32,000 bases of DNA from Nitrososphaerota archaeon (GTDB taxonomy: Archaea > Thermoproteota > Nitrososphaeria > Nitrososphaerales > UBA57), in NCBI GenBank assembly GCA_002713205.1, contig PAVW01000018.1:5474-37473 (forward strand). Direction: 5' to 3'. The notes beneath the pieces are model-generated. The model did not search any database, was not told the origin of the DNA, and saw only the letters and a list, made by a program, of their open reading frames with translations. Positions 5,116 to 24,287 of this stretch are shown one piece after another; the stretch's first letter is position 1; each line of letters starts with the position of its first letter. The translations under genes and the position numbers were made by a program.

Positions 5116-6138
5116 ATGGATATTGAAGAAAAAATTAATCTCGTTAACAGATTTCCTACTGAGGAAATTATCCAAGAAGAAGAATTAAATCATTTATTTC
5201 AAACCAATAACGCGCCAAAACATTATCTTGGAATTGAGCTTTCTGGTATTTTACATCTTGGTAGTTTGTTAATAACTGGTTTTAAAATTAATGATTTTAT
5301 TAAAGCTGGTATAAATACTTCTGTATATCTGGCTGATTGGCACAGTTTTATTAATAATAAATTTAGTGGAAATTGGGATGAAATTCAAAAAATTATAAAA
5401 TATTATGATGAAGCTTTTAGATTTTTTTGCCCTGGTGTTAAAATAATTCGAAGCGCCGAATTATATCATAATAATGATGACTATTGGAAAAATCTTGTCC
5501 AATTTTCTAAACACATGACCTTGTCTAGAGCTGTTCGATGTTTGACAATAATGGGAAGAACAGAAAAAGATCAATTAGATCTTGCACAGTATTTGTACCC
5601 ATCAATGCAAGCTGTAGATATTAAAGAACTAGATCTTGATATTGTTCACGCTGGTACTGATCAAAGAAAAATTCATATGCTTGTTAGAGAAGTATTTCCT
5701 AAATTGAAATGGAAAGTTCCTGTCGCAGTACATCATCATCTTATTCCTGGATTACGAAGTACAGAGGGTGATACATCAACACTATTTAATAAAATGAGTA
5801 AATCGAATCCAAAAAGTTCTATCTTTATTCATGATTCAGAACCTGAAATTATGGCTAAGATTAAACTTGCTTGGGCAAAACAAGGCGTTATTGATAATAA
5901 TCCAATTCTAGAATATGCTAAATATATTATATTTCATGAATATGATTCTTTTACAATAGAAAGATCAAGTAAATTTGGTGGAGATATGTCTTTTTCTAAT
6001 TATACTGAATTAGAATTAGAATATAAAACTGGAAAAATCCATCCACTTGATTTGAAATTATCTGTCGGTCGAAAAATTAATGAAATCGTTGCTCCAATTC
6101 GTGAACATTTTTCAAATAAAAAGGAATTATTTTGTTAA
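5116..6138 (+). CDS. tyrS: Tyrosyl-tRNA synthetase, archaeal type
   Basis: 340 aa class-I aaRS with a HIGH-type element (SGILHLGS) and KMSKS (FNKMSKSNP). Colinear resemblance to the archaeal TyrRS I recall from M. jannaschii (DQRKIHML, DSEPEI..KIK.A, NPILEYAKY, KFGGD, HPLDLK, PIRE). Confidence 0.85.
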   Translation: MDIEEKINLVNRFPTEEIIQEEELNHLFQTNNAPKHYLGIELSGILHLGSLLITGFKINDFIKAGINTSVYLADWHSFINNKFSGNWDEIQKIIKYYDEAFRFFCPGVKIIRSAELYHNNDDYWKNLVQFSKHMTLSRAVRCLTIMGRTEKDQLDLAQYLYPSMQAVDIKELDLDIVHAGTDQRKIHMLVREVFPKLKWKVPVAVHHHLIPGLRSTEGDTSTLFNKMSKSNPKSSIFIHDSEPEIMAKIKLAWAKQGVIDNNPILEYAKYIIFHEYDSFTIERSSKFGGDMSFSNYTELELEYKTGKIHPLDLKLSVGRKINEIVAPIREHFSNKKELFC

Positions 6139-12705: not shown

Positions 12706-13113
12706 TTATTCTTCCGATAATTTAATTATATAATTCCAATATTTTTGTGATACTGGCATTACAGAAAGTCTTGGCAGTCTCACAAGTTCAAAATCTTTAA
12801 AAATACTATTTGATTTAATTTCTTTTAAACTAATGGCTCTCTTTAATCTTTTTTTAATTTTAATATCAAAAACAAGTAGTTTTTCATTATTTTGATTTGG
12901 ATCTGGATATGGTTTGGAAATTGCTTTTGCAATGCCAATTATTAACTTTTCCACACCCGAATGGTATATGAATAACTCATCTCCTTTTTTAATTTGTTTT
13001 ATATGTTTTAATGCTAAATTATTTTTTATTCCATCCCACGTTGTATTTTTTTCTTTTTCTAATATATCAAATGAATAATTTTTTGGCTCTTCTTTTAATA
13101 ACCAATAATTCAT
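12706..13113 (-). CDS. EVE-domain (PUA-like) protein
   Basis: 135 aa. N-terminal NYWLLKEEPKNYSFDIL...WDGIKNNLALKHIKQIKKGDELFIYHSG matches the EVE-domain pattern (WL.K.EP..YS...L......WDG.RN.QA......M..GD..F.YHS). Confidence 0.75.
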   Translation of the reverse strand: MNYWLLKEEPKNYSFDILEKEKNTTWDGIKNNLALKHIKQIKKGDELFIYHSGVEKLIIGIAKAISKPYPDPNQNNEKLLVFDIKIKKRLKRAISLKEIKSNSIFKDFELVRLPRLSVMPVSQKYWNYIIKLSEE

Positions 13114-15476: not shown

Positions 15477-16163
15477 TTATAATTGTGAAAATATTGATTT
15501 TATCTTCTCTTCATTATTTTTTTTAGTTATTCCGAGAATGATATTTTCTCGTTTTGATAATTCTATTGCTAAATCGTCAACCTGATCTGGTCCATGTAGT
15601 ATTACCATTCGAGGTTTTAATCGTGAAACTCTTATTGCAACTAATGGAGACCTTCCAAGTCCAACTCTGGTAAAAATTAGAACGCGTTCGGTTGTAGCTC
15701 CAAATATTTTATAAAAATCAATTCCTGATAGAAGATAAATTGTGTTTATGCTATCTAAAATTGTATATCCATATAATTTTGTTTTTAATTGATCTTCACC
15801 ATTCAATATTTTTGCATTTAATAGTGTTTTAAGTTTTAATGCTGTTAATGGTTTGTTAAATTCTCCTATTCCTATTATTGCTGAATGTTCTTCTTTTAAT
15901 AATCGATTTAATGTTTTATTATTTGTTTTATCAACTTCTACAAGTGCTTTAATATATTTTTTTATAAATATGACGCCCGGTGAACTTCTTCTTCCACTTT
16001 CATAATCACTTAGTACTGAAGGTGACATATTCATTTGTTTCGCTAAAATTATTTGTTTAATTTTTAATCTTTGTCTCCATATCTTTAACATTTGTCCTGG
16101 ATTATTATTTATTACAACATCTCCTGCAATTTTTGATATTATTTCAAGATCTGTTTGTGACAC
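15477..16163 (-). CDS. XRE-family HTH transcriptional regulator with an uncharacterised ~150-aa C-terminal domain
   Basis: Cro/C1-type HTH (LKIKQIILAKQMNMSPSVLSDYESGRRSSPG) near the N-terminus. I cannot name the C-terminal domain (…GYTILDS…ERVLIFTRVGLGRSP…MVILHGP). Apparent GTG start. It lies 45 nt downstream of herA on the same strand. Confidence 0.6.
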   Translation of the reverse strand: MSQTDLEIISKIAGDVVINNNPGQMLKIWRQRLKIKQIILAKQMNMSPSVLSDYESGRRSSPGVIFIKKYIKALVEVDKTNNKTLNRLLKEEHSAIIGIGEFNKPLTALKLKTLLNAKILNGEDQLKTKLYGYTILDSINTIYLLSGIDFYKIFGATTERVLIFTRVGLGRSPLVAIRVSRLKPRMVILHGPDQVDDLAIELSKRENIILGITKKNNEEKIKSIFSQL

Positions 16164-16208: not shown

Positions 16209-17651
16209 TTAATTAAAAAATAATTTTGTTTCGCCCATTGCATGCCATTTACTTTCTGATATTTTTACAACTACTGGTAGATCATTGACTGTTTTTCCTA
16301 AAACTAAGCAATTTTTTGATGGTAGTGTGCGCACTATTGATTTTACTGTATCTGCATCAACCATACTGGCTTTTGATACTAATTCAATATCAGTATCATT
16401 AGTAAAATTAAATAGAAAAATATTATCTGCTTGTCTATATATTCCTTGATCTATGGCATCGGGTTGATTTGTAATAAAAGTTGTAAATATTCCAAAATGT
16501 CTCATTCTTGTAATTATATCATCCCAATATGTATCTCGTAAGTATAGATGTGCTTCCTCTGCAAATAAAAATACCGGTTTAATGTCTTTTTTTTCTAATA
16601 AATTGACTAATTTCGATAAAATTATTTCTACAGTAATTCTTCGTAATAGTGGTGATGCTTCAGATAACGAAATTATAATTATATTTCCATCGGGTTGTGT
16701 ATTTAGTAATTCTTCTAATTTAATCGAATTATTGTTATCTGTTAAAATACCTGTTGATTGTAAAGTATGAAATCGTGATATTAATGCATCTCTGACAAAT
16801 TCATTGCCTTTCCAATTAAAAATATGATTTCTCAATTCATCTATATTTAATGAATTCTTCGTTTTTAATAATTTGAAAATACGTAAAAATTCTCGTAATG
16901 ACGCTCCTGGTAATTGTAATGAATGAGTTAAAATATTACATAAGCAATTTAGTTCAAGATATTGCAAGTTGAATTTTAATGATTTACCGGGAACTAATCT
17001 TGTTATTTTTCTTGATAAATTACTAGTCGTTCCATTTTTATTTTTTGTTAATCCCTTGTATTCATCATTTAAATCAAAAATAATTATTGGGGCCCCTAAT
17101 TCTGCTAAATTAGCTGCTAATAGTTTAGATAAATGTGATTTTCCAGATTCTTTTTTCCCAGTTATTATATTTAATTTTCCATCTAAAGCTTCTGCATAAA
17201 TTTTAAATATTTCATTTGATGCACCTGTTCCTAATTCTATTTCTCTTTTTCCTTCTCTTTTTGCAATTTCAAATAATTCATTATATGATATTTTTTTAAT
17301 TTTTGTATAAACTCTTGATGGCAGTAAATTATTTGAATATGTTAACGTTGAATTTTTTATCATTCCTCTGATTTTACATTTTAATATTCTTGAATCTCTA
17401 ATAAACATTGAAATATTTTCTATTTCTAATGATTCTCCTTGAATTCCTTCTAACGTAGATTCTATTACTTCGTCTCTTAAGATTTCTTCAGATAATCCTG
17501 GAATGTCAATATATGTTTCTTCATATATTTGCGCTAAAATATTTATTTTTTTTGATGTATCTTCTAACTGTAAATAATCTCCTTGATGTACTTGTTCACT
17601 TGGAGTTGATAATATTAATACTTCATTACCTGATTTTCCTAATATTTTCAT
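16209..17651 (-). CDS. herA: HerA-like FtsK/HerA-superfamily ATPase (DUF87)
   Basis: 480 aa. N-terminal barrel-like region (KILGKSGNEVLILSTP...GDYLQLED...ILAQIYE), Walker A ITGKKESGKSHL and Walker B VFLFAEEAHLYL (the HerA-type hhhh-D/E-EAH). The start ATG overlaps the upstream small ORF's stop (ATGA). Confidence 0.75.
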   Translation of the reverse strand: MKILGKSGNEVLILSTPSEQVHQGDYLQLEDTSKKINILAQIYEETYIDIPGLSEEILRDEVIESTLEGIQGESLEIENISMFIRDSRILKCKIRGMIKNSTLTYSNNLLPSRVYTKIKKISYNELFEIAKREGKREIELGTGASNEIFKIYAEALDGKLNIITGKKESGKSHLSKLLAANLAELGAPIIIFDLNDEYKGLTKNKNGTTSNLSRKITRLVPGKSLKFNLQYLELNCLCNILTHSLQLPGASLREFLRIFKLLKTKNSLNIDELRNHIFNWKGNEFVRDALISRFHTLQSTGILTDNNNSIKLEELLNTQPDGNIIIISLSEASPLLRRITVEIILSKLVNLLEKKDIKPVFLFAEEAHLYLRDTYWDDIITRMRHFGIFTTFITNQPDAIDQGIYRQADNIFLFNFTNDTDIELVSKASMVDADTVKSIVRTLPSKNCLVLGKTVNDLPVVVKISESKWHAMGETKLFFN

Positions 17652-17899
17652 TTTTTAAAATCCATATTTTTGTATATTTCAAATTTTAATATTTTATTTT
17701 CAATTTGATTTAATTTTAATTCTGTTTCTTCAATTAATAGTTCGTTTTTTTCTCTCTTATAATTTTCAATTCCAATAATATCGAATTCATTTTCTTTTTG
17801 ATAATATTCTGTAAGTTTTTCATATAGATATTTATATTCTATTATATTTTTGTTATGTTCTTTTTCTTTTATTTCTGTTAATAATATGTAATTTTTCAT
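17648..17899 (-). CDS. Small Lys/Glu/Asn-rich predicted coiled-coil protein wedged between nurA and herA
   Basis: 83 codons from ATG 17899, or 86 from TTG 17908, which would overlap the nurA stop. Heptad-like charged sequence (…YLYEKLTEYYQKENE…YKREKNELLIEETELKLNQIENKILKFEIYK). Its stop overlaps the herA ATG. No family recognised. Confidence 0.5.
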   Translation of the reverse strand: MKNYILLTEIKEKEHNKNIIEYKYLYEKLTEYYQKENEFDIIGIENYKREKNELLIEETELKLNQIENKILKFEIYKNMDFKK

Positions 17900-17904
17900 T
17901 TTTA

Positions 17905-18915
17905 TCAATTTTTATTTTTTAATGTCCAATACCATCTAAGTATTGTATTTCGTGTATTTTCACTTGGTATTTCTTTTAATGAAAAATTTTTACATAAATA
18001 GCTTTTAAAGCATACATCTTCAAAATTTGTAAATATTGATATATTATGCGCTAATATTAATGATTCAGGATATCCTCTATAATATGAATCGTTATAACTT
18101 AAATAACCTAATTCAAATTTTATATTTTTTGCTATACTTTCCGTTTTAAATACTAATCCATTATCTCTCATTTTTAATAACATTAATTCTTTTTTTATGA
18201 TGTTTTTTTTATTTGATTTTATTCTGAATATAAATGGTGATCCTTTTATTGATTTTAATTTAGGAAATGTAAAAATTATTGATTTATCTTTTGTTGTTTT
18301 TGATATTCCAATTAAACTATTATTATTTTCATTTGCTTTTTTTAATATTATATCTCCATCTTGGGCTGAAGTAATAATATTTAATGTTCCATCAACTAAT
18401 ATTATGCAATTATTTAACGAATTTGATAATTCTTTAATTAAGATTTTTTCTAATGTATTTCTAATATGTGATTCAATTATAGATGAATTATTATTAAATT
18501 GACTTAATTTAATAAATTGAAATTGTGTTAATGTCTTTTCATTATAATAATTTAAAAATGGTCCAAATTGTAAATATTTTATTGGTTTTCCATTTAATGA
18601 TAAAACAGCAGCTACTCTCGAAGCATAAATTGTTCCACTATCTAAATCATATATTGGAATACATGATGAATCGATTGCAACAATTAATTTTTTTTCTTTT
18701 ATTGTTTTAACATGTTCTATATTGAAATTATGTGAATTGGTATGTTCTATTATTGGTTGACGATGAGCAGAGGAGCTGAAAATAACGTTTTTCCCCGTTA
18801 TTTCCTTCATATTGAACTTTATTTTATTATTAATTTCTTTATTTATTTTATCAATGATTAAGGTTGGTTCGTTTTTTAAAAAATTTATTTGTATATTGTT
18901 TAATTGCGTGGCCAT
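17905..18915 (-). CDS. nurA: NurA-like nuclease (RNase-H-like fold)
   Basis: Order and spacing of NurA-type catalytic elements: LIVAIDSS (Asp 1), …IIESHIRNTLEKIL… (Glu), CIILVDGTLN (Asp 2) and the C-terminal GYPESLILAHNISIF (YP..L..AH). It is operonic with herA. I place the start at ATG 18915 (M31 of the track ORF), because the longer version would overlap the divergent gene and the operator region. Confidence 0.65.
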   Translation of the reverse strand: MATQLNNIQINFLKNEPTLIIDKINKEINNKIKFNMKEITGKNVIFSSSAHRQPIIEHTNSHNFNIEHVKTIKEKKLIVAIDSSCIPIYDLDSGTIYASRVAAVLSLNGKPIKYLQFGPFLNYYNEKTLTQFQFIKLSQFNNNSSIIESHIRNTLEKILIKELSNSLNNCIILVDGTLNIITSAQDGDIILKKANENNNSLIGISKTTKDKSIIFTFPKLKSIKGSPFIFRIKSNKKNIIKKELMLLKMRDNGLVFKTESIAKNIKFELGYLSYNDSYYRGYPESLILAHNISIFTNFEDVCFKSYLCKNFSLKEIPSENTRNTILRWYWTLKNKN

Positions 18916-18964
18916 GTTGAACAACATGAATAAGAAACATTCAAATATAAATGTTGTGCAACAT
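18913..18964. promoter_or_regulatory. Divergent promoter/operator region: two ATGTTG-N2-CAACAT palindromes flanking a TATA-like box
   Basis: CATGTTG-aa-CAACATG lies at 18913-18928 and overlaps the nurA ATG. ATGTTG-tg-CAACAT lies at 18951-18964. An extra inverted pair, AACATT (18936-41) and AATGTT (18950-55), brackets caaatata. AAATATAAA at 18943-18951 is placed to act as a TATA box for either direction. Confidence 0.45.
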
Positions 18965-18989
18965 GCACAATTAATGGATTTGTTATGAT

Positions 18990-19436
18990 TTGGATTTAGA
19001 AACAAATAAAGTTACTATAAAATTAAAACGAGGAAGTTGGGAAGTTGAAATCACTTGCCCAGAGGATAAAGTAAAACAAATTGTCGAAAATGTATTAAGT
19101 GGCTTGGATAAGGACAAATCTATTAAACAGGAAATTCAAGATCTTCCAGCTGTTCATTCTATGACCAATGATGAAATTATGAAAGCCGACGTAGTAACAA
19201 AATCCAAAGATCATGTTATTTGTAGGGATTTAATTCAATTATTATGGCAGGAAAATTGGTTTCAAACTGAAAAAAATCTTTCTAATGTTTATGAGGAATT
19301 GGCCAGACGTGGTTATCATTATGATAAAACTAGTATATCGCATTCATTAGCTGATTTAGTTAGAGAAACTACTTTAACACGTGTTGGTTCTATAAGAAAT
19401 TATCGATATATACAAAAAAGACCTCCATCACCATAA
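18990..19436 (+). CDS. Uncharacterised small protein, paralog 1: N-terminal beta-beta-alpha-like module + C-terminal winged helix
   Basis: 148 aa with an apparent TTG start (no in-frame ATG near the N-terminus). The N-terminus is KVTIKLKRGSWEVEITCPEDKVKQIVENVL. The C-terminal wHTH-like pattern is LIQLLWQ…LSNVYEELARRGYHYDKTSISHSLADLVRETTLTRVGSIRNYRYI. Confidence 0.6.
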   Translation: MDLETNKVTIKLKRGSWEVEITCPEDKVKQIVENVLSGLDKDKSIKQEIQDLPAVHSMTNDEIMKADVVTKSKDHVICRDLIQLLWQENWFQTEKNLSNVYEELARRGYHYDKTSISHSLADLVRETTLTRVGSIRNYRYIQKRPPSP

Positions 19437-19468
19437 AAGTATATTAATTTATTTTAGAAATATATAGT

Positions 19469-19960
19469 ATGAAAGAATCTCCTATTAAAATAAAACTTCA
19501 TATATCTAATGCTGAAATTGAATTAGAATGTGCTTTAGAAGAAATGTCTGAAGTCCTCAAATTTATTCCTGAATTAATTGGTATTCTTTCTAATAATGTA
19601 AAAAGTATTCCAAAATCGTTAACACCTGTTTTAAACAAGTCTGATATTAGTGATGATCTTCCTGATATTTCTGTTAGTAGATCAGATTCTCTAACTGCCA
19701 TTTTAATTAAATTGTTTAGTAGTTCGTGGTCATCTAGTCCAAAAAAATTAAATGAAATTCGCGAAGCTCTTAACTCTTATGGACTAATATATCCGAAACA
19801 ATCCGTTGCAGTAACTCTTTTACGAATGGCTCAGTCTGGTAAATTACGACGATTTAAAAGTAGTAGCGGTGAATATGTTTATACTCCATCAACTTCTCTT
19901 TTTTCAACTTCTAATTCATTAGTCTCTAATTCATTAAATATTTCATCTAAATCAGCATGA
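19469..19960 (+). CDS. Uncharacterised small protein, paralog 2: same N-module + winged helix, Ser-rich tail
   Basis: 163 aa. The N-terminus is PIKIKLHISNAEIELECALEEMSEVLKFIPEL. The C-terminal part LIKLFSSSW…KKLNEIREALNSYGLIYPKQSVAVTLLRMAQSGKLRRFKSSSGEYVYT aligns position-for-position with paralog 1 (W, K.L, E.L, G..Y.K.S, L, L.R, S, Y.Y). Confidence 0.6.
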   Translation: MKESPIKIKLHISNAEIELECALEEMSEVLKFIPELIGILSNNVKSIPKSLTPVLNKSDISDDLPDISVSRSDSLTAILIKLFSSSWSSSPKKLNEIREALNSYGLIYPKQSVAVTLLRMAQSGKLRRFKSSSGEYVYTPSTSLFSTSNSLVSNSLNISSKSA

Positions 19961-19967
19961 TTATGGA

Positions 19968-20468
19968 ATGATAAAATTGACTGATATTATTGTTTCAATA
20001 ACATTTGAAGACACAAAAATTGATTTTAAAGGAGAACCTAATGATGTTCTAGTTTCAATAAATGAATTCTTTTTAAAACAAATTCCAAATCTTGATTTAG
20101 CTAAAAAAATTTCTGTAAATTATTCATTGGAACAATTAATATCTATTTTTTCTGAATATATCAAATTAACTCCAGAAGGTCCTAGAATCTGGATAGAAAA
20201 TAAGAAATTAAGTGATAGGGAGAAAATATGTTTGCAATTAATTGCTTTTCATATAGGTTATTTGGCTAAAAATTCAAATAATTCACAAATTAGTATGAAT
20301 ATTATTTCAAATCTTACAGGTCTTAACTCTAAATCAATTAGTTCCAGATTAAGTGAATTACAAAAATTGGGTTATGTCAAAAAACATAATATTGATAATA
20401 AAATTTTATTTCAAATAACAACACAAGGTATTTATTGGTTTGAACAAATTATTATTAAAAAAGTATGA
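19968..20468 (+). CDS. Uncharacterised small protein, paralog 3: same N-module + winged helix
   Basis: 166 aa. The N-terminus is DIIVSITFEDTKIDFKGEPNDVLVSINEFFLKQI. The C-terminal wHTH-like segment is ISNLTGLNSKSISSRLSELQKLGYVKKHNIDNKILFQITTQG. It starts 7 nt after paralog 2. Confidence 0.6.
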   Translation: MIKLTDIIVSITFEDTKIDFKGEPNDVLVSINEFFLKQIPNLDLAKKISVNYSLEQLISIFSEYIKLTPEGPRIWIENKKLSDREKICLQLIAFHIGYLAKNSNNSQISMNIISNLTGLNSKSISSRLSELQKLGYVKKHNIDNKILFQITTQGIYWFEQIIIKKV

Positions 20469-20495
20469 TTATGTATTTTTAATGTGAGTTGTGTT

Positions 20496-20885
20496 ATGAA
20501 AAAATTAACTATAGTTTTGAGTTTATTAACAATATCCCTTGGTCTTTTAGGCGGACAAGCAGCTAATAATATATTTGAAGAAGTTGAAATGTTAGAAGAA
20601 CAAAATCTGAATCCAGCTAATAATGAAAATAGAGCTCCTGCTTCACCAGAATATATTGGAGCCCTTTATGACGAAGGATCTTTTGTTGCATTTTTTAGCC
20701 GAGCTTTAATATTTCTTGGTGTATTTTTCACCCTTTATGGTTTTATCGATGACTTAAAAAAACTTAAACGAAAAGATATATCAAAAAATTCTGAGAATAC
20801 AGTAAAACTTGAAGAAACATATGAAGAATTTAAACTAAGAAAGAAAAAATTTCGAGAAGCGCAGCGAAAACAAGTTTCTAATTAA
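20496..20885 (+). CDS. Small membrane protein (N-terminal signal/TM, second TM, Lys/Arg-rich C-tail)
   Basis: MKKLTIVLSLLTISLGLLGG is a hydrophobic N-terminus and ALIFLGVFFTLYGFI is a second TM, followed by a charged tail (KKLKRK…KLRKKKFREAQRK). It is the last gene of the plus-strand run. The track opens at GTG 20484; ATG is at 20496. Confidence 0.5.
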   Translation: MKKLTIVLSLLTISLGLLGGQAANNIFEEVEMLEEQNLNPANNENRAPASPEYIGALYDEGSFVAFFSRALIFLGVFFTLYGFIDDLKKLKRKDISKNSENTVKLEETYEEFKLRKKKFREAQRKQVSN

Positions 20886-20889
20886 ATAT

Positions 20890-22716
20890 TTATTTCGAAT
20901 CTGTAACAATTATATTTTTTTGTTGTACTAATGCTTTTATTATATTCTTTCCTAAATCTGAAGATTTTGATACTCGAATTTTATTTTTTTTACCAACTGT
21001 AGCTGAAAAAATATATTCATTGTTTATATATACATTTAGTTTTTTACTATGTAATTTTCTATTAAATAAAAAATCTAATGAATTTCCTGATTCATGAATA
21101 GTATGATTAATTTTTTTTCCTAATGAATTATCAAACGGTAATACATCTATACTGATTCCTAATTGCGCTTCTATTTTGTTTATTTCTGATCCTCCTTTAC
21201 CTATTATTCTTGGAATAAATGATTTATCTATTTTTACAATTGCATGTGATGCTGATGTGAATTTAATTTCTGCTTGTGTGTTATAATCATTAAAAATATT
21301 CTGTAATTCTTTTTTCACAAATTTTATTTTACTAGTTTCTTTTTCTTCTAATAACGCAACCGGTATGATAATATTTTCATCTCCATATGTATAAATCTCA
21401 TATTCCAGTTTTTCATTTTCAAAATCTCGAATTTCTACAACTGGCCTTGTTAAATCTCTTTCAGTCATTCCAGTTGGAACTTTCATAACTAATTCTAATT
21501 GATAAATTTTTGAAATATCTCCATTATTTATGAATATTACAGTATCGATTATGTTACATATCATGCCTATTTCTATACGTCCGATGAATCTTTGGATAGA
21601 ATTAACAGGATTACTTGCATGAACAACACCTATCATTCCTACTCCTGAAAGGCGAAGATCTGAAAAAATCATAAAATCTTTTGATTTTCTAACTTCATCA
21701 AATACAGTATAATCTGGTCTTACTAATAATAGTACTTCTGCTGTTTTTTCAAAATCACCTTCTAATGGCCCGTATTGTGAAATTTCTGAATCAACTTGTA
21801 AATCTTTTGGAGATTCTATTGTTTTTACAATTTTATTTTTTTTTGAATAAAATTCAGCTAAACTTGATGCAAATGTGCTTTTACCTGAACCAGGAGGTCC
21901 TGATACCAAAATTCCTTCTGCTGCTGATTCAATTCTATTTTGTAATTTTGGTGAAATTGTATAGTCATCTAGTTTGAGTTTTTTTATTGGTTTTATTATA
22001 GTTACTTCTATTTTATCTGAAAATGGAGGATTTGTAATAGCAATTCTAAATGAATCAAGTTGAATTACTTTTGCACCATTCTTCATTATTGGCCTATCAA
22101 CTTTTTTTGCAATTCTACTAAATTCTTCAATTTCTTTAATAATTTTTTCTATTTCTTCTTTGGTAACTGAATTACCTATCGATTTCATTTTTACTTTACC
22201 TGGTTTTCCTATTTTAATTCGCACAGGAATTCCTTCAGTTATATGAACACTTGTTGTATTCTTTTCAAAAAATTTTAAAAATTTTAATTCATTTCTATCG
22301 ATTTTAGTTTCTATATATTTGACTTCTGCTCCTAATACTTCTGCAACAATTGCTTGTACATAATCTCCTGTATACAATAATGCTTTGTTTTTTATTGCTT
22401 CATCTCTAATTATTCCATCAATTCTTCCACTTTTTGCTAATTTAATATCTTCTAATGATGGTTTTGAACCTAAATATTTGAATATAATTTTTTTCTGATC
22501 TGATAATTTTCTAAGTTTTTTTAATTCTTCTAAACCTAAAAATCCCACTTCTCTATGTTTTGATGCTTGTGATTGTAATTCATCTAATACGGCTATTGGA
22601 ATTATAATTTCACAGTTTTTTAATTCTTTTTTATTTATATTATTTGACAGAATGCCATTAATAATTATACTTGTATCCGGCACAATTTTAATTTTTTTAG
22701 TTTTATTTTTTACCAA
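20890..22716 (-). CDS. PIN-domain / P-loop ATPase / KH-domain protein (archaeal PilT-like ATPase, COG1855-type)
   Basis: 608 aa with an N-terminal PIN (KIVPDTSIIINGIL…DELQ), a central P-loop (LVSGPPGSGKSTFA) and a C-terminal KH motif (IIGKGGSEINKIE). Apparent TTG start. Confidence 0.8.
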   Translation of the reverse strand: MVKNKTKKIKIVPDTSIIINGILSNNINKKELKNCEIIIPIAVLDELQSQASKHREVGFLGLEELKKLRKLSDQKKIIFKYLGSKPSLEDIKLAKSGRIDGIIRDEAIKNKALLYTGDYVQAIVAEVLGAEVKYIETKIDRNELKFLKFFEKNTTSVHITEGIPVRIKIGKPGKVKMKSIGNSVTKEEIEKIIKEIEEFSRIAKKVDRPIMKNGAKVIQLDSFRIAITNPPFSDKIEVTIIKPIKKLKLDDYTISPKLQNRIESAAEGILVSGPPGSGKSTFASSLAEFYSKKNKIVKTIESPKDLQVDSEISQYGPLEGDFEKTAEVLLLVRPDYTVFDEVRKSKDFMIFSDLRLSGVGMIGVVHASNPVNSIQRFIGRIEIGMICNIIDTVIFINNGDISKIYQLELVMKVPTGMTERDLTRPVVEIRDFENEKLEYEIYTYGDENIIIPVALLEEKETSKIKFVKKELQNIFNDYNTQAEIKFTSASHAIVKIDKSFIPRIIGKGGSEINKIEAQLGISIDVLPFDNSLGKKINHTIHESGNSLDFLFNRKLHSKKLNVYINNEYIFSATVGKKNKIRVSKSSDLGKNIIKALVQQKNIIVTDSK

Positions 22717-22808: not shown

Positions 22809-24287
22809 TTGAATTCATTAACAAAATATGAAGATATATTAATATCTGTAATTAAAGAGGCTCAAAAACACAATGTTGAATTTGTTGAGGCTAGATTTCA
22901 TTCTACTTGGAATTTAGTGGCAATATTGAATAATGGTAAATCTGAACCATCAATTTCTTCTGAAACTCAGGGTATTGGAATTCGTATTATTTATGACGGT
23001 GTGATGATTTTTGCTTCAATTAATTCTTATGATTCAATTCCACAACTTATTGAAAAATCAATTTCAACCGCAAAGTCTTCTAAGAAACTTTCAAAAAATC
23101 CTATTAAATTTTCTTCTGAAAAATCAATAAATAAAACATGGGCTGCAGAAGAAAAAGAAAATTTAAAAAATGTAAATATAGATGAAATGATTTCTGAACT
23201 TAATAATATTGATGAATATGTAAAATCATTTAGTTCTGATGTTTCTTTTCCAAAACGAACTCTTATTCTTTCGAATTCAATTGAAGAAAAGTTCTATATT
23301 AATAGTGAAGGCAGTCGTATATTAAGTCGAGTACCTAGAGTTGAATTTCATAGTTATTTAGCTGCTAAAACTAATGGTTCTTTATCAGCAATTTCTATTC
23401 CTGCAGGGTATGCAGGACTTGGTGGAACTGGTGGTTGGGAAACTATCAAAACATTTAATTTTGATTCATACATTCCTGAACAATTAAAAAATTCTTCTAA
23501 ATCTATTACATCAAAATTAGTAAAATTTGATAATGATGTTGATGTAATTGTTGGCCCTGAGATTGCAGGAATAGTTGCACATGAATCATGTGGACATCCA
23601 TTTGAAGCTGATCGTATTCTGGGTCGAGAAGCAGCTCAAGCAGGTGAATCATACTTAGACTTCGATAGTGTTGAAAAAAAATTTAATTTTGGTACTATTG
23701 AAGAAATTGATAAATCTGAAGCTTTTGTTAGTGACGATCCAACACTTTCTGGTTCTATGGGTTTTTATTTATTTGATGATGAAGGTGTCGAAGCACACAA
23801 ACGCACTTTACTTCAAGGTGGAATTGTCACTGATCTATTACATAATCGTGAAACATCATTTCAAAAAGATATTCAAAGTAATGCTTCATCACGAAGTGTC
23901 GACTATGACCGTGAACCTATAATCAGAATGTCTAATACATTTATTGAACCAGGGGATTATGATTTTGAAGAATTGGTCGCTGATATAAAATATGGAATTT
24001 ATATTAAGAATTTTATGGAATGGAATATTAATGATACACGAGAGCATCAGAAATATGTTGGTTTGGAAGCATATCTTATTAAAAATGGTATTAAGGATGT
24101 TAATGTAAAATCTCCTGTTCTTGAACTAACTGCCAAAAAATTCTGGTCTAGTATAGATGGACGTTCTAAAACTTTGAAATTTTCTTCTGCTACATGTGGT
24201 AAAGGAGAACCAATGCAAGGAGCTCCAGTTTGGACTGGTGGCCCTCACGTCAGGCTGCGAAATCTTCGGGTGGGAAGTCATTCATGA
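22809..24287 (+). CDS. tldD: TldD-family metalloprotease
   Basis: 492 aa with the metal-binding HESCGHPFEADR (HExxxH) and a conserved C-terminus (GKGEPMQGAPVWTGGPHVRLRNLRVG). Apparent TTG start; there is no in-frame ATG until far downstream. Confidence 0.85.
   Translation: MNSLTKYEDILISVIKEAQKHNVEFVEARFHSTWNLVAILNNGKSEPSISSETQGIGIRIIYDGVMIFASINSYDSIPQLIEKSISTAKSSKKLSKNPIKFSSEKSINKTWAAEEKENLKNVNIDEMISELNNIDEYVKSFSSDVSFPKRTLILSNSIEEKFYINSEGSRILSRVPRVEFHSYLAAKTNGSLSAISIPAGYAGLGGTGGWETIKTFNFDSYIPEQLKNSSKSITSKLVKFDNDVDVIVGPEIAGIVAHESCGHPFEADRILGREAAQAGESYLDFDSVEKKFNFGTIEEIDKSEAFVSDDPTLSGSMGFYLFDDEGVEAHKRTLLQGGIVTDLLHNRETSFQKDIQSNASSRSVDYDREPIIRMSNTFIEPGDYDFEELVADIKYGIYIKNFMEWNINDTREHQKYVGLEAYLIKNGIKDVNVKSPVLELTAKKFWSSIDGRSKTLKFSSATCGKGEPMQGAPVWTGGPHVRLRNLRVGSHS

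Follow-up and report, generated by a model that had tools for sequence, protein, structure and literature searches.

What is known of HerA-NurA biology comes almost entirely from thermophiles, in which the genes for this helicase-nuclease pair accompany mre11 and rad50 and are responsive to TFB3 or Orc1-2. Thaumarchaeota rank among Earth's most abundant archaea; our literature searches, which were narrow, left us knowing of no DNA-damage regulator for these organisms. Here we describe a HerA-NurA locus from a marine Nitrososphaerota metagenome-assembled genome (MAG; GenBank assembly GCA_002713205.1), contained in a stretch of 32,000 nucleotides of contig PAVW01000018.1 (forward-strand positions 5,474 to 37,473; hereafter, the window). 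In this locus (Table 1), the genes for NurA and HerA, with a small open reading frame (ORF) between them, are divergent from three genes encoding small winged-helix proteins (wH1, wH2 and wH3) and a gene for a putative transmembrane (TM) protein, and the promoter region between the two arms contains a pair of 14-bp palindromes that is conserved together with wH1 across the class Nitrososphaeria. The explanation that fits best, to which we assign a probability of about 60%, is that the locus is a vertically inherited second HerA-NurA operon, with wH1 as a local repressor acting through the shared operator pair. An earlier note, made from the sequence alone, had proposed that the small ORF, the winged-helix trio and the membrane protein are dedicated partners or regulators of the HerA/NurA module, making it either a lineage-specific repair variant or an undescribed defense-like system.

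Several described systems resemble this locus in part. As in the canonical mre11-rad50-herA-nurA loci of Sulfolobus and Pyrococcus, a HerA of similar length (480 vs 500 aa) is encoded beside a NurA-domain nuclease; the Walker motifs, the D/E/D/H set of residues and the adjacent or overlapping genes are common to both, and the Sulfolobus solfataricus HerA is the closest solved sequence. In contrast to these loci, the window and the Pfam-annotated relative loci lack mre11 and rad50, HerA scores far below the equivalog cut-offs, the small ORF splits the pair, and a divergent winged helix-turn-helix (wHTH) gene with its putative operators adjoins it. The cas-associated HerA and NurA of Thermoproteales are a paralogous pair that always occurs together and outside the mre11/rad50 operon (PMC3973734). 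The window pair is likewise paralogous and outside that operon, but the window and the annotated relative loci contain no cas genes, and the pair is class-wide, vertically inherited and in fixed core synteny. The ATPase domain also matches models of the anti-phage Sir2-HerA and DUF4297-HerA systems and of mad8 of the MADS system (PDB 8j4u and 9c1m), a likeness at the superfamily level, whereas the anti-phage HerAs are 570-700 aa long against 480 aa here, the partner in the window is NurA rather than a Sir2 or DUF4297 effector, and there is no defense-island context. In its regulatory layout, the locus resembles divergent wHTH repressors of the MarR, ArsR or BlaI-MecI style, with a small wHTH protein encoded divergently from its presumed target, and it shares with these, as well as with archaeal repressors that block TBP/TFB or polymerase recruitment, two inverted repeats that flank the TATA box and cover the predicted transcription start. 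It differs in that wH1 and wH2 belong to no Pfam family, in that three proteins bearing the same module are encoded together, and in that the dimerization element of wH1 is predicted to be an N-terminal beta-beta-alpha module on a disordered linker, unlike the helical interface of the MarR dimer.

Conserved palindromes between nurA and wH1

Alignment of the wH1/NurA spacers reveals a strong footprint that consists of two 14-bp palindromes, ATGTTG-NN-CAACAT, both of which have exact matches in the window (Table 1). The distal palindrome would occupy the position of the TFB recognition element (BRE) for nurA; on the wH1 side, it would separate the TATA box, itself an A/T palindrome, from the predicted wH1 start. 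The geometry is largely fixed: the palindrome centers are 37 bp apart in the window and 37-38 bp apart in 49/77 orthologous loci, the TATA-like hexamer begins 1 nt past the distal palindrome in 46/77, and the proximal palindrome is directly followed in 69/77 by an ATG, the codon at which NurA begins in the window as well as in those loci that were inspected. The 12-mer TGTTGNNCAACA has two exact matches in the window, both in the spacer, and all 72 exact matches in ~1.07 Mb of related loci fall inside the wH1/NurA spacer. With up to one mismatch allowed, the palindrome core occurs at 10.5/kb inside the spacer vs 0.32/kb outside (81 orthologous loci), and nearly every orthologous spacer contains at least two palindromes. 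The pattern for genome scans is ATGTTGNNCAACAT; a literature search for the motif returned only primer matches. Archaeal TATA boxes usually lie ~26 nt upstream of the transcription start and, therefore, the nurA mRNA is predicted to be nearly leaderless, starting inside the proximal site. Inverted repeats located in a regulator's own, divergent promoter and conserved along with that regulator make up the arrangement of an autoregulated repressor, for which binding and repression are here predictions.

The best candidate for the factor that binds the palindromes is wH1, because no other gene is adjacent in every case and the palindromes are in the promoter of wH1 itself, because its winged helix is modelled confidently and resembles the DNA-binding domains of MecI/BlaI, Fur and RosR, and because its recognition helix and wing are, like the operator, near-invariant. 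In the AlphaFold2 (AF2) model, wH1 begins with a beta-beta-alpha module, which a disordered linker connects to a C-terminal wHTH domain (residues 78-142, pLDDT ~90), and Foldseek retrieves only generic wHTH regulators, such as the three kinds just named (E at least 0.012). The recognition helix and the basic wing are nearly invariant across the class. The model of wH3 (pLDDT 84) combines the same N-terminal module with a C-terminal winged helix, for which Foldseek finds MarR-family and AspA-type wHTH proteins (E 3.5e-4 and weaker); both wH1 and wH3 contain the three-helix bundle and beta-hairpin wing of the wHTH fold, with a Foldseek probability of 1.00. The ~300 homologs of wH1 are all either unnamed or labelled as Thaumarchaeota proteins, and neither wH1 nor wH2 has a Pfam family, the 31 wH1 family members scanned yielding only marginal matches to MCM5_C or RTP, in 2 members each. 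The window wH3 scores 14.1 bits on MarR_2, below the cut-off of 27, and is not assigned to the MarR family (PF01047/PF12802); MarR_2 or HTH_24 matches 12/28 members of the wH3 family, with some orthologs reaching an E value of 3e-6.

That the three wH proteins are paralogs, as had been proposed in the earlier note, holds for wH1 and wH2, which align over their full length (hhalign 98.2%, E 3e-13) and from each of which Jackhmmer converges on one common set of sequences; wH3 shares the architecture but has no significant profile similarity to the others (E 0.003-0.012, probability 4-11%). Cys78 of wH1 (window 19221-19223), a single Cys where the winged helix begins, does not vary among the 31 family members aligned, and C23 alternates with Ser; a role of Cys78 as a 1-Cys redox switch would be pure speculation.

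The gene identities, the conserved linkage, and the conservation and specificity of the palindromes are observations; from this arrangement we infer the identity of the operator-binding factor, the repression and the role in repair, and the mechanism could be as follows. A compact promoter region, common to wH1 and active in both directions, would drive nurA-(small ORF)-herA. A wH1 dimer would bind both palindromes and, when bound, repress nurA-(small ORF)-herA as well as its own operon until some signal releases it; a single factor occupying both sites would shut both promoters. The wH2 and wH3 proteins may join wH1 through the beta-beta-alpha module, or else regulate genes elsewhere. The HerA-NurA pair would perform 5'-3' DNA-end processing without a linkage to mre11/rad50.

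The HerA-NurA pair, its linkage and its losses

The identities of both members of the pair are supported by Pfam. The HerA central domain (PF01935) is detected at 44.5 bits, against a cut-off of 23.2 (2.6e-11), which places the protein in the HerA/FtsK superfamily, and the Walker A (GKKESGKS) and Walker-B-like (FAEEAH) motifs are invariant (alignment A1). More than 3000 homologs of this HerA exist, and across Nitrososphaeria the sequences are 50-62% identical. Its match to S. solfataricus HerA (4d2i, 1.3e-14), ahead of those to the anti-phage HerAs, spans only profile positions 314-469, and the scores on the NCBIfam HerA equivalogs NF040937 and NF040819 (42.7 vs 800 bits and 19.6 vs 970 bits, respectively) place it outside canonical HerA as these models define it. 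NurA was detected by the Pfam model alone (PF09376, 27.6 bits vs a cut-off of 21, 2.5e-6). Residues D82, E156, D175 and H290 of NurA are invariant in 15 orthologs (alignment A4) and appear to parallel, in their order, the active site D51/E105/D126/H411 of PfNurA (PMC3300031), a putative correspondence. The adjacency or overlap of the two genes in every testable related locus supports the prediction that they form a complex of a HerA hexamer and a NurA dimer with an ATP-driven nuclease activity.

As the earlier note had pointed out, there is no mre11 or rad50 nearby: Mre11 and Rad50 domains are found neither in the 31 window ORFs of at least 90 aa, all of which were scanned, nor in the 12 Pfam-annotated relative loci (drawn from L001-L008 and L089-L093), so that by genomic linkage the pair does not belong to the canonical operon. 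In one relative with a long contig (L090:3113-4855), HerA is split into ORFs of 379 and 107 aa, by a frameshift or an assembly error, and a 76-aa PC4-like protein (PF02229) of the single-strand-DNA-binding type is encoded between HerA and HTH3, the helix-turn-helix gene that follows HerA (Table 1).

A scan with HerA of one genome per species identified 407 relatives, of which the best 80 were examined as loci; all of these 80 are from Nitrososphaeria, and the HerA of the nearest species is only 55% identical. The ORFs of the relative loci were mapped by tblastn and jackhmmer, and the counts that follow are loci with the gene over testable species loci. NurA is directly upstream of HerA in every relative locus with enough sequence. 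The divergent wH1 adjoins NurA in 72/72 loci, wH3 lies beyond wH1 in 61/69, wH2 lies beyond wH3 in 23/65, and HTH3 follows HerA on the same strand in 21/59. The ancestral order is wH2> wH3> <wH1 NurA> HerA>; in the window lineage and its marine relatives, an inversion of wH2-wH3 has given wH1>wH2>wH3>, with adjacency retained. The proposed link of the wH genes to this herA/nurA subtype is thus conserved across the class and survived the inversion. A search by clustering for conserved partners among the genes downstream of HerA yielded mostly spurious antisense ORFs, from GC-rich loci. Our narrow literature searches found no earlier description of the wH/HerA/NurA linkage in Thaumarchaeota, of the wH1/wH2 family or of the conserved wH1-operator-HerA/NurA unit, and this unit, together with the family, is the new element here. 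The locus is a concrete regulatory unit conserved class-wide, with a wH family that has no name, an operator pair of fixed geometry and, as the target, a second helicase-nuclease pair.

In the reverse direction, a scan of metagenome contigs with the wH1 profile gave 41 loci in which NurA adjoins wH1 and 14 in which it does not. About 10 of the 14 are marine contigs with the synteny of the window (GlyRS, DUF92, HTH3 / wH1 wH2 wH3 / PINA) minus NurA and HerA, and the loci L089, L091 and L093 likewise have NurA-HerA deleted, with the wH trio and HTH3 intact and with recognizable palindromes, one mismatch in each. The trio is therefore not an obligate partner of the pair, and the claim that it is dedicated to HerA/NurA fails, the marine sisters having kept the trio, the operators and the flanking synteny. 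The order of events is that the wH2-wH3 inversion came first, followed by the loss of NurA-HerA in marine Nitrosopumilales-like lineages; one marine lineage, that of the window MAG, retained NurA-HerA and gained an orphan gene inside the pair.

At the former position of NurA-HerA, behind the same operator-bearing promoter, these marine loci encode ORFs of 85-102 aa (L089:5675-5932, L091:4677-4934 and L093:4671-4979), those of L089 and L091 being 54% identical to each other. The 85-aa replacement ORF shows no similarity to NurA or HerA and is rejected as a remnant of either, and it is not a homolog of the small ORF of the window (Smith-Waterman z = -0.7 against 1000 shuffles; blastp found nothing). 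Another 4 of the 14 contigs stem from a single soil lineage, in which an insertion of ~2.6 kb lies between NurA and wH1; this is the only clear separation of the divergent pair. Both flanks of the insertion are seen in L160:1811-4456, and the same segment lies upstream of wH1 in L144:1-2489; in L160 it contains an ORF of 320 aa resembling FkbM-type methyltransferases and a frameshifted or degraded transposase-like ORF, these labels coming from reading the translations.

A reconstruction of gene content places rad50, mre11, herA (FAM000748) and nurA (FAM003267) in all ancestors of ammonia-oxidizing archaea (AOA), with a second herA (FAM000368) and nurA (FAM003221) that disappeared together in CARA, the ancestor that Nitrosopumilales and Nitrosotaleales have in common (Abby et al. 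2020, Table S3; PMC7554672). The window pair is most likely this second pair, because the deletion of NurA-HerA in L089, L091, L093 and the ~10 marine metagenome loci matches the loss in CARA. If so, the marine MAG studied here is exceptional in having retained it. Marine metagenomes, those of Tara among them, repeatedly contain near-identical contigs (92-100%): the window lineage is common in the ocean and poorly represented among reference genomes.

Competing explanations

The small ORF, the three wH proteins and the TM protein could be physical subunits or adaptors of a new HerA-NurA machine, either a repair variant that replaces Mre11-Rad50 or a defense-like DNA degrader, a possibility that we consider distinctly improbable. 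It would be in line with the tight and ancient linkage of the wH genes to this HerA/NurA subtype, with the beta-beta-alpha module that all three wH proteins share and that could mediate assembly, and with the small ORF, which evolves under purifying selection and seems to be coupled in translation to nurA and herA on either side. Indeed, judged from its sequence, the small ORF is a real gene rather than a chance frame: its ratio of nonsynonymous to synonymous substitution rates (dN/dS) is 0.12 against a relative of 93% identity, none of 2000 shuffles of its interval (15.5% GC) stays open, and the indel of 6 nt between the window and L006 is in frame. As a conserved partner, it is ruled out, being absent from all loci outside the window lineage. 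Among the first 93 loci, jackhmmer finds it only in L006/L007, to which the near-identical metagenome contigs L095-L097 (wH1 92-95% identical to that of the window) can be added; a full HMMER scan of 1.84 billion (1.84e9) representative proteins returns 3 matches, all 70-100% identical, and searches of Pfam, PADLOC and PHROGs return none. The TM protein is restricted to marine lineages: it has no family match above noise, its homologs among the same 93 loci come from the window, from L006/L007 and from the marine locus L089 alone, and its dN/dS of 0.66 against the relative of 93% identity is almost neutral. Both genes are recent, lineage-specific additions and not core parts of the locus, so that neither is the dedicated partner that the earlier note took it to be; the wH trio, furthermore, is intact where NurA-HerA is deleted, and the ancestors of AOA are reported to have retained mre11 and rad50 as well.

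The defense-like variant of this proposal draws on the HerA ATPase, which scores on the anti-phage models in PADLOC (mad8 7.7e-19, HerA models down to 1e-16). These are superfamily-level matches of the ATPase. NurA, the small ORF, wH1 and TM have no PADLOC match, those of wH2 and wH3 are marginal and at the wHTH level only, and a PHROGs scan of the seven proteins of the block added nothing. Anti-phage HerA systems combine HerA with a cognate effector (Sir2, DUF4297 or others), and PADLOC found no such effector, nor any partner protein that matches a defense model. The locus is part of the core genome, syntenic, vertically inherited and outside any defense island, and in view of these features, along with the level of the matches, we reject a new defense system, to which nothing points; the locus looks like a locally regulated repair module instead.

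The question of which factor reads the palindromes admits an unlikely answer in which they are operators of the XRE-type HTH3, or of another factor acting in trans, with the wH proteins engaged in, for example, DNA binding of the chromatin or segregation type. Short palindromes are common targets of regulators of the XRE type, HTH3 remains next to the operator-bearing promoter where NurA-HerA has been lost and in many lineages is collinear with HerA, and the fold of wH3 is also like that of the centromere-binding wHTH proteins AspA and TubR. On the other hand, HTH3 is adjacent in only 21/59 testable loci vs 72/72 for wH1, the operators lie exactly in the wH1 promoter, the classical autoregulatory position, and the DNA-reading surface of wH1 is as invariant as the operator. 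Very unlikely, in our estimate, is that the adjacency is inherited synteny without functional coupling, with wH1-3 being ordinary transcription factors whose regulons are elsewhere. Much of the neighborhood, such as the GlyRS, DUF92 and HTH3 genes, is likewise syntenic class-wide with no evident functional link, and the wH trio survives the loss of HerA-NurA. Yet wH1 is adjacent in all the testable loci despite deep divergence (HerA ~50% identical) and changing neighbors, the wH2-wH3 pair was inverted and still stayed, and the promoter is shared to the base pair: the operator overlaps the NurA start codon in 69/77 loci and, therefore, any factor bound there must affect nurA transcription.

A regulatory link between the wH genes and HerA-NurA through the class-wide operator pair is thus strongly suggested, and the regulator role that the earlier note had allowed for fits wH1, given the conserved palindromic operators in the shared promoter. 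Several points weigh against the more specific picture of wH1 as the local repressor of a HerA-NurA repair operon. HTH3, the sequence of which is as well conserved, could bind the operators in place of wH1. The retention of wH1-wH2-wH3 and of recognizable operators in genomes that have lost NurA-HerA implies that the wH cassette has a role beyond this operon, of which the regulation of HerA-NurA is perhaps only a part. HerA is far below the NCBIfam equivalog cut-offs, NurA has no real match in the PDB by sequence or profile, and the biochemical equivalence of the pair to the Sulfolobus and Pyrococcus HerA-NurA complex is an assumption. The putative identification with FAM000368/FAM003221, finally, comes from the matching loss pattern.

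An extension of the local-repressor picture, which we offer as a long shot, is that wH1, wH2 and wH3 assemble through the beta-beta-alpha module into a Thaumarchaeota-specific sensor-regulator that switches on a second, Mre11/Rad50-independent HerA-NurA resection machine upon DNA or oxidative damage, with the invariant wH1 Cys, for example, as a sensor of oxidation. For AOA, no DNA-damage-response regulator with its regulon would have been defined before such a system, and the window lineage would have added an orphan protein of 83 aa to the operon of the helicase and nuclease.

Genomic setting

The layout described in the earlier note is correct to the base: HerA, the small ORF and NurA are on the minus strand, and wH1-wH2-wH3-TM begin 74 bp away in the divergent direction. 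The stop codon of the small ORF and the start of HerA overlap as ATGA, and the distance from the NurA stop to the small ORF is 5 nt with the ATG start or a 4-nt overlap with the TTG start; HTH3, which the earlier note had left out of the block, follows HerA on that strand after 45 nt. The plus-strand spacers are 32, 7 and 27 nt, the last being 15 nt with the GTG start of the TM gene. Alignment to orthologs, which begin with MGTQL or MGIQL, places the NurA start at MATQLNN (18915) and not at the TTG at 19005, hence the 74-bp spacer. The TTG start of wH1 is shared by the window (18990) and the marine relative L089 (L089:6001; 64% identical), and no alternative ATG preserves the conserved N-terminus. 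The two hydrophobic stretches claimed for the last plus-strand protein are evident on inspection.

Table 1. Features of the HerA-NurA locus in window coordinates
Feature	Position	Strand	Description
HTH3	15477..16163	-	XRE/Cro-type helix-turn-helix with conserved C-terminal domain, 228 aa; Pfam HTH_3, 2e-7
HerA	16209..17651	-	HerA-family hexameric-type P-loop ATPase/helicase, 480 aa; Pfam DUF87 (PF01935)
Small ORF	17648..17899	-	K/E/N/I-rich, between nurA and herA; 83 codons (ATG 17899), 86 if TTG 17908
NurA	17905..18915	-	NurA-family nuclease, 336 aa from the MATQLNN start; Pfam NurA (PF09376)
Proximal operator candidate	18914..18927		ATGTTGAACAACAT; exact match; overlaps NurA start codon (18915-18913) and predicted transcription start
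NurA-wH1 spacer	18916-18989		74 bp, between divergent genes
TATA-like box	18943..18950		A/T-rich, common to both promoters; AAATATAA (plus), TTATATTT (minus); read from sequence, putative promoter function
Distal operator candidate	18951..18964		ATGTTGTGCAACAT; exact match; abuts TATA box
wH1	18990..19436	+	148 aa; TTG start; AF2 winged helix
wH2	19469..19960	+	163 aa; full-length paralog of wH1
wH3	19968..20468	+	166 aa; MarR/ArsR-like winged helix; Pfam HTH_24, HTH_34 at 1e-4
TM protein	20484..20885	+	two hydrophobic segments, by inspection; start GTG 20484 or ATG 20496

The rest of the window encodes housekeeping proteins, namely, arginase, deoxyhypusine synthase, PolB, TyrRS, GlyRS, DUF92, a PINA-type ATPase, TldD/PmbA, thermosome and Cdc48. 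The GC content is uniform, as is that of third codon positions (0.09-0.25 across the window), and no tRNA or Rfam features were found in the window; with no compositional sign of foreign DNA, we reject a foreign or island origin of the block. The window belongs to the core genome of a marine Thaumarchaeota MAG, in which the deposited proteins (locus tags CMO11_043xx) are identical to those described here, with HerA and NurA both annotated as "hypothetical protein". The impression that proteins of the block are richer in Asn, Lys and Ile than those of the flanks (0.19-0.36) is borne out for the small ORF (0.42), NurA (0.37) and wH3 (0.35), and not for wH1 (0.22), wH2 (0.23), TM (0.23) or HerA (0.27).

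Convergent with the TM gene, positions 20890-22716 (minus strand) encode a protein with PIN, PilT-like ATPase and KH domains, with a score of 715 bits on NCBIfam PRK13764; on the model of the Holliday-junction migration ATPase PINA, it reaches 412 bits, short of the cut-off of 800. A second recombination-type ATPase thus adjoins the block in the window and in its marine relatives. An EVE-domain protein (PF01878, 1.4e-37) is encoded next to GlyRS (12706-13113, minus strand) and is syntenic in L006 and L089; EVE domains are readers of modified bases. At 24230-24287, the second TldD/PmbA paralog, with its listed TTG start, overlaps the first by 58 nt vs only 4 nt in L006, and the listed start is probably too far upstream.

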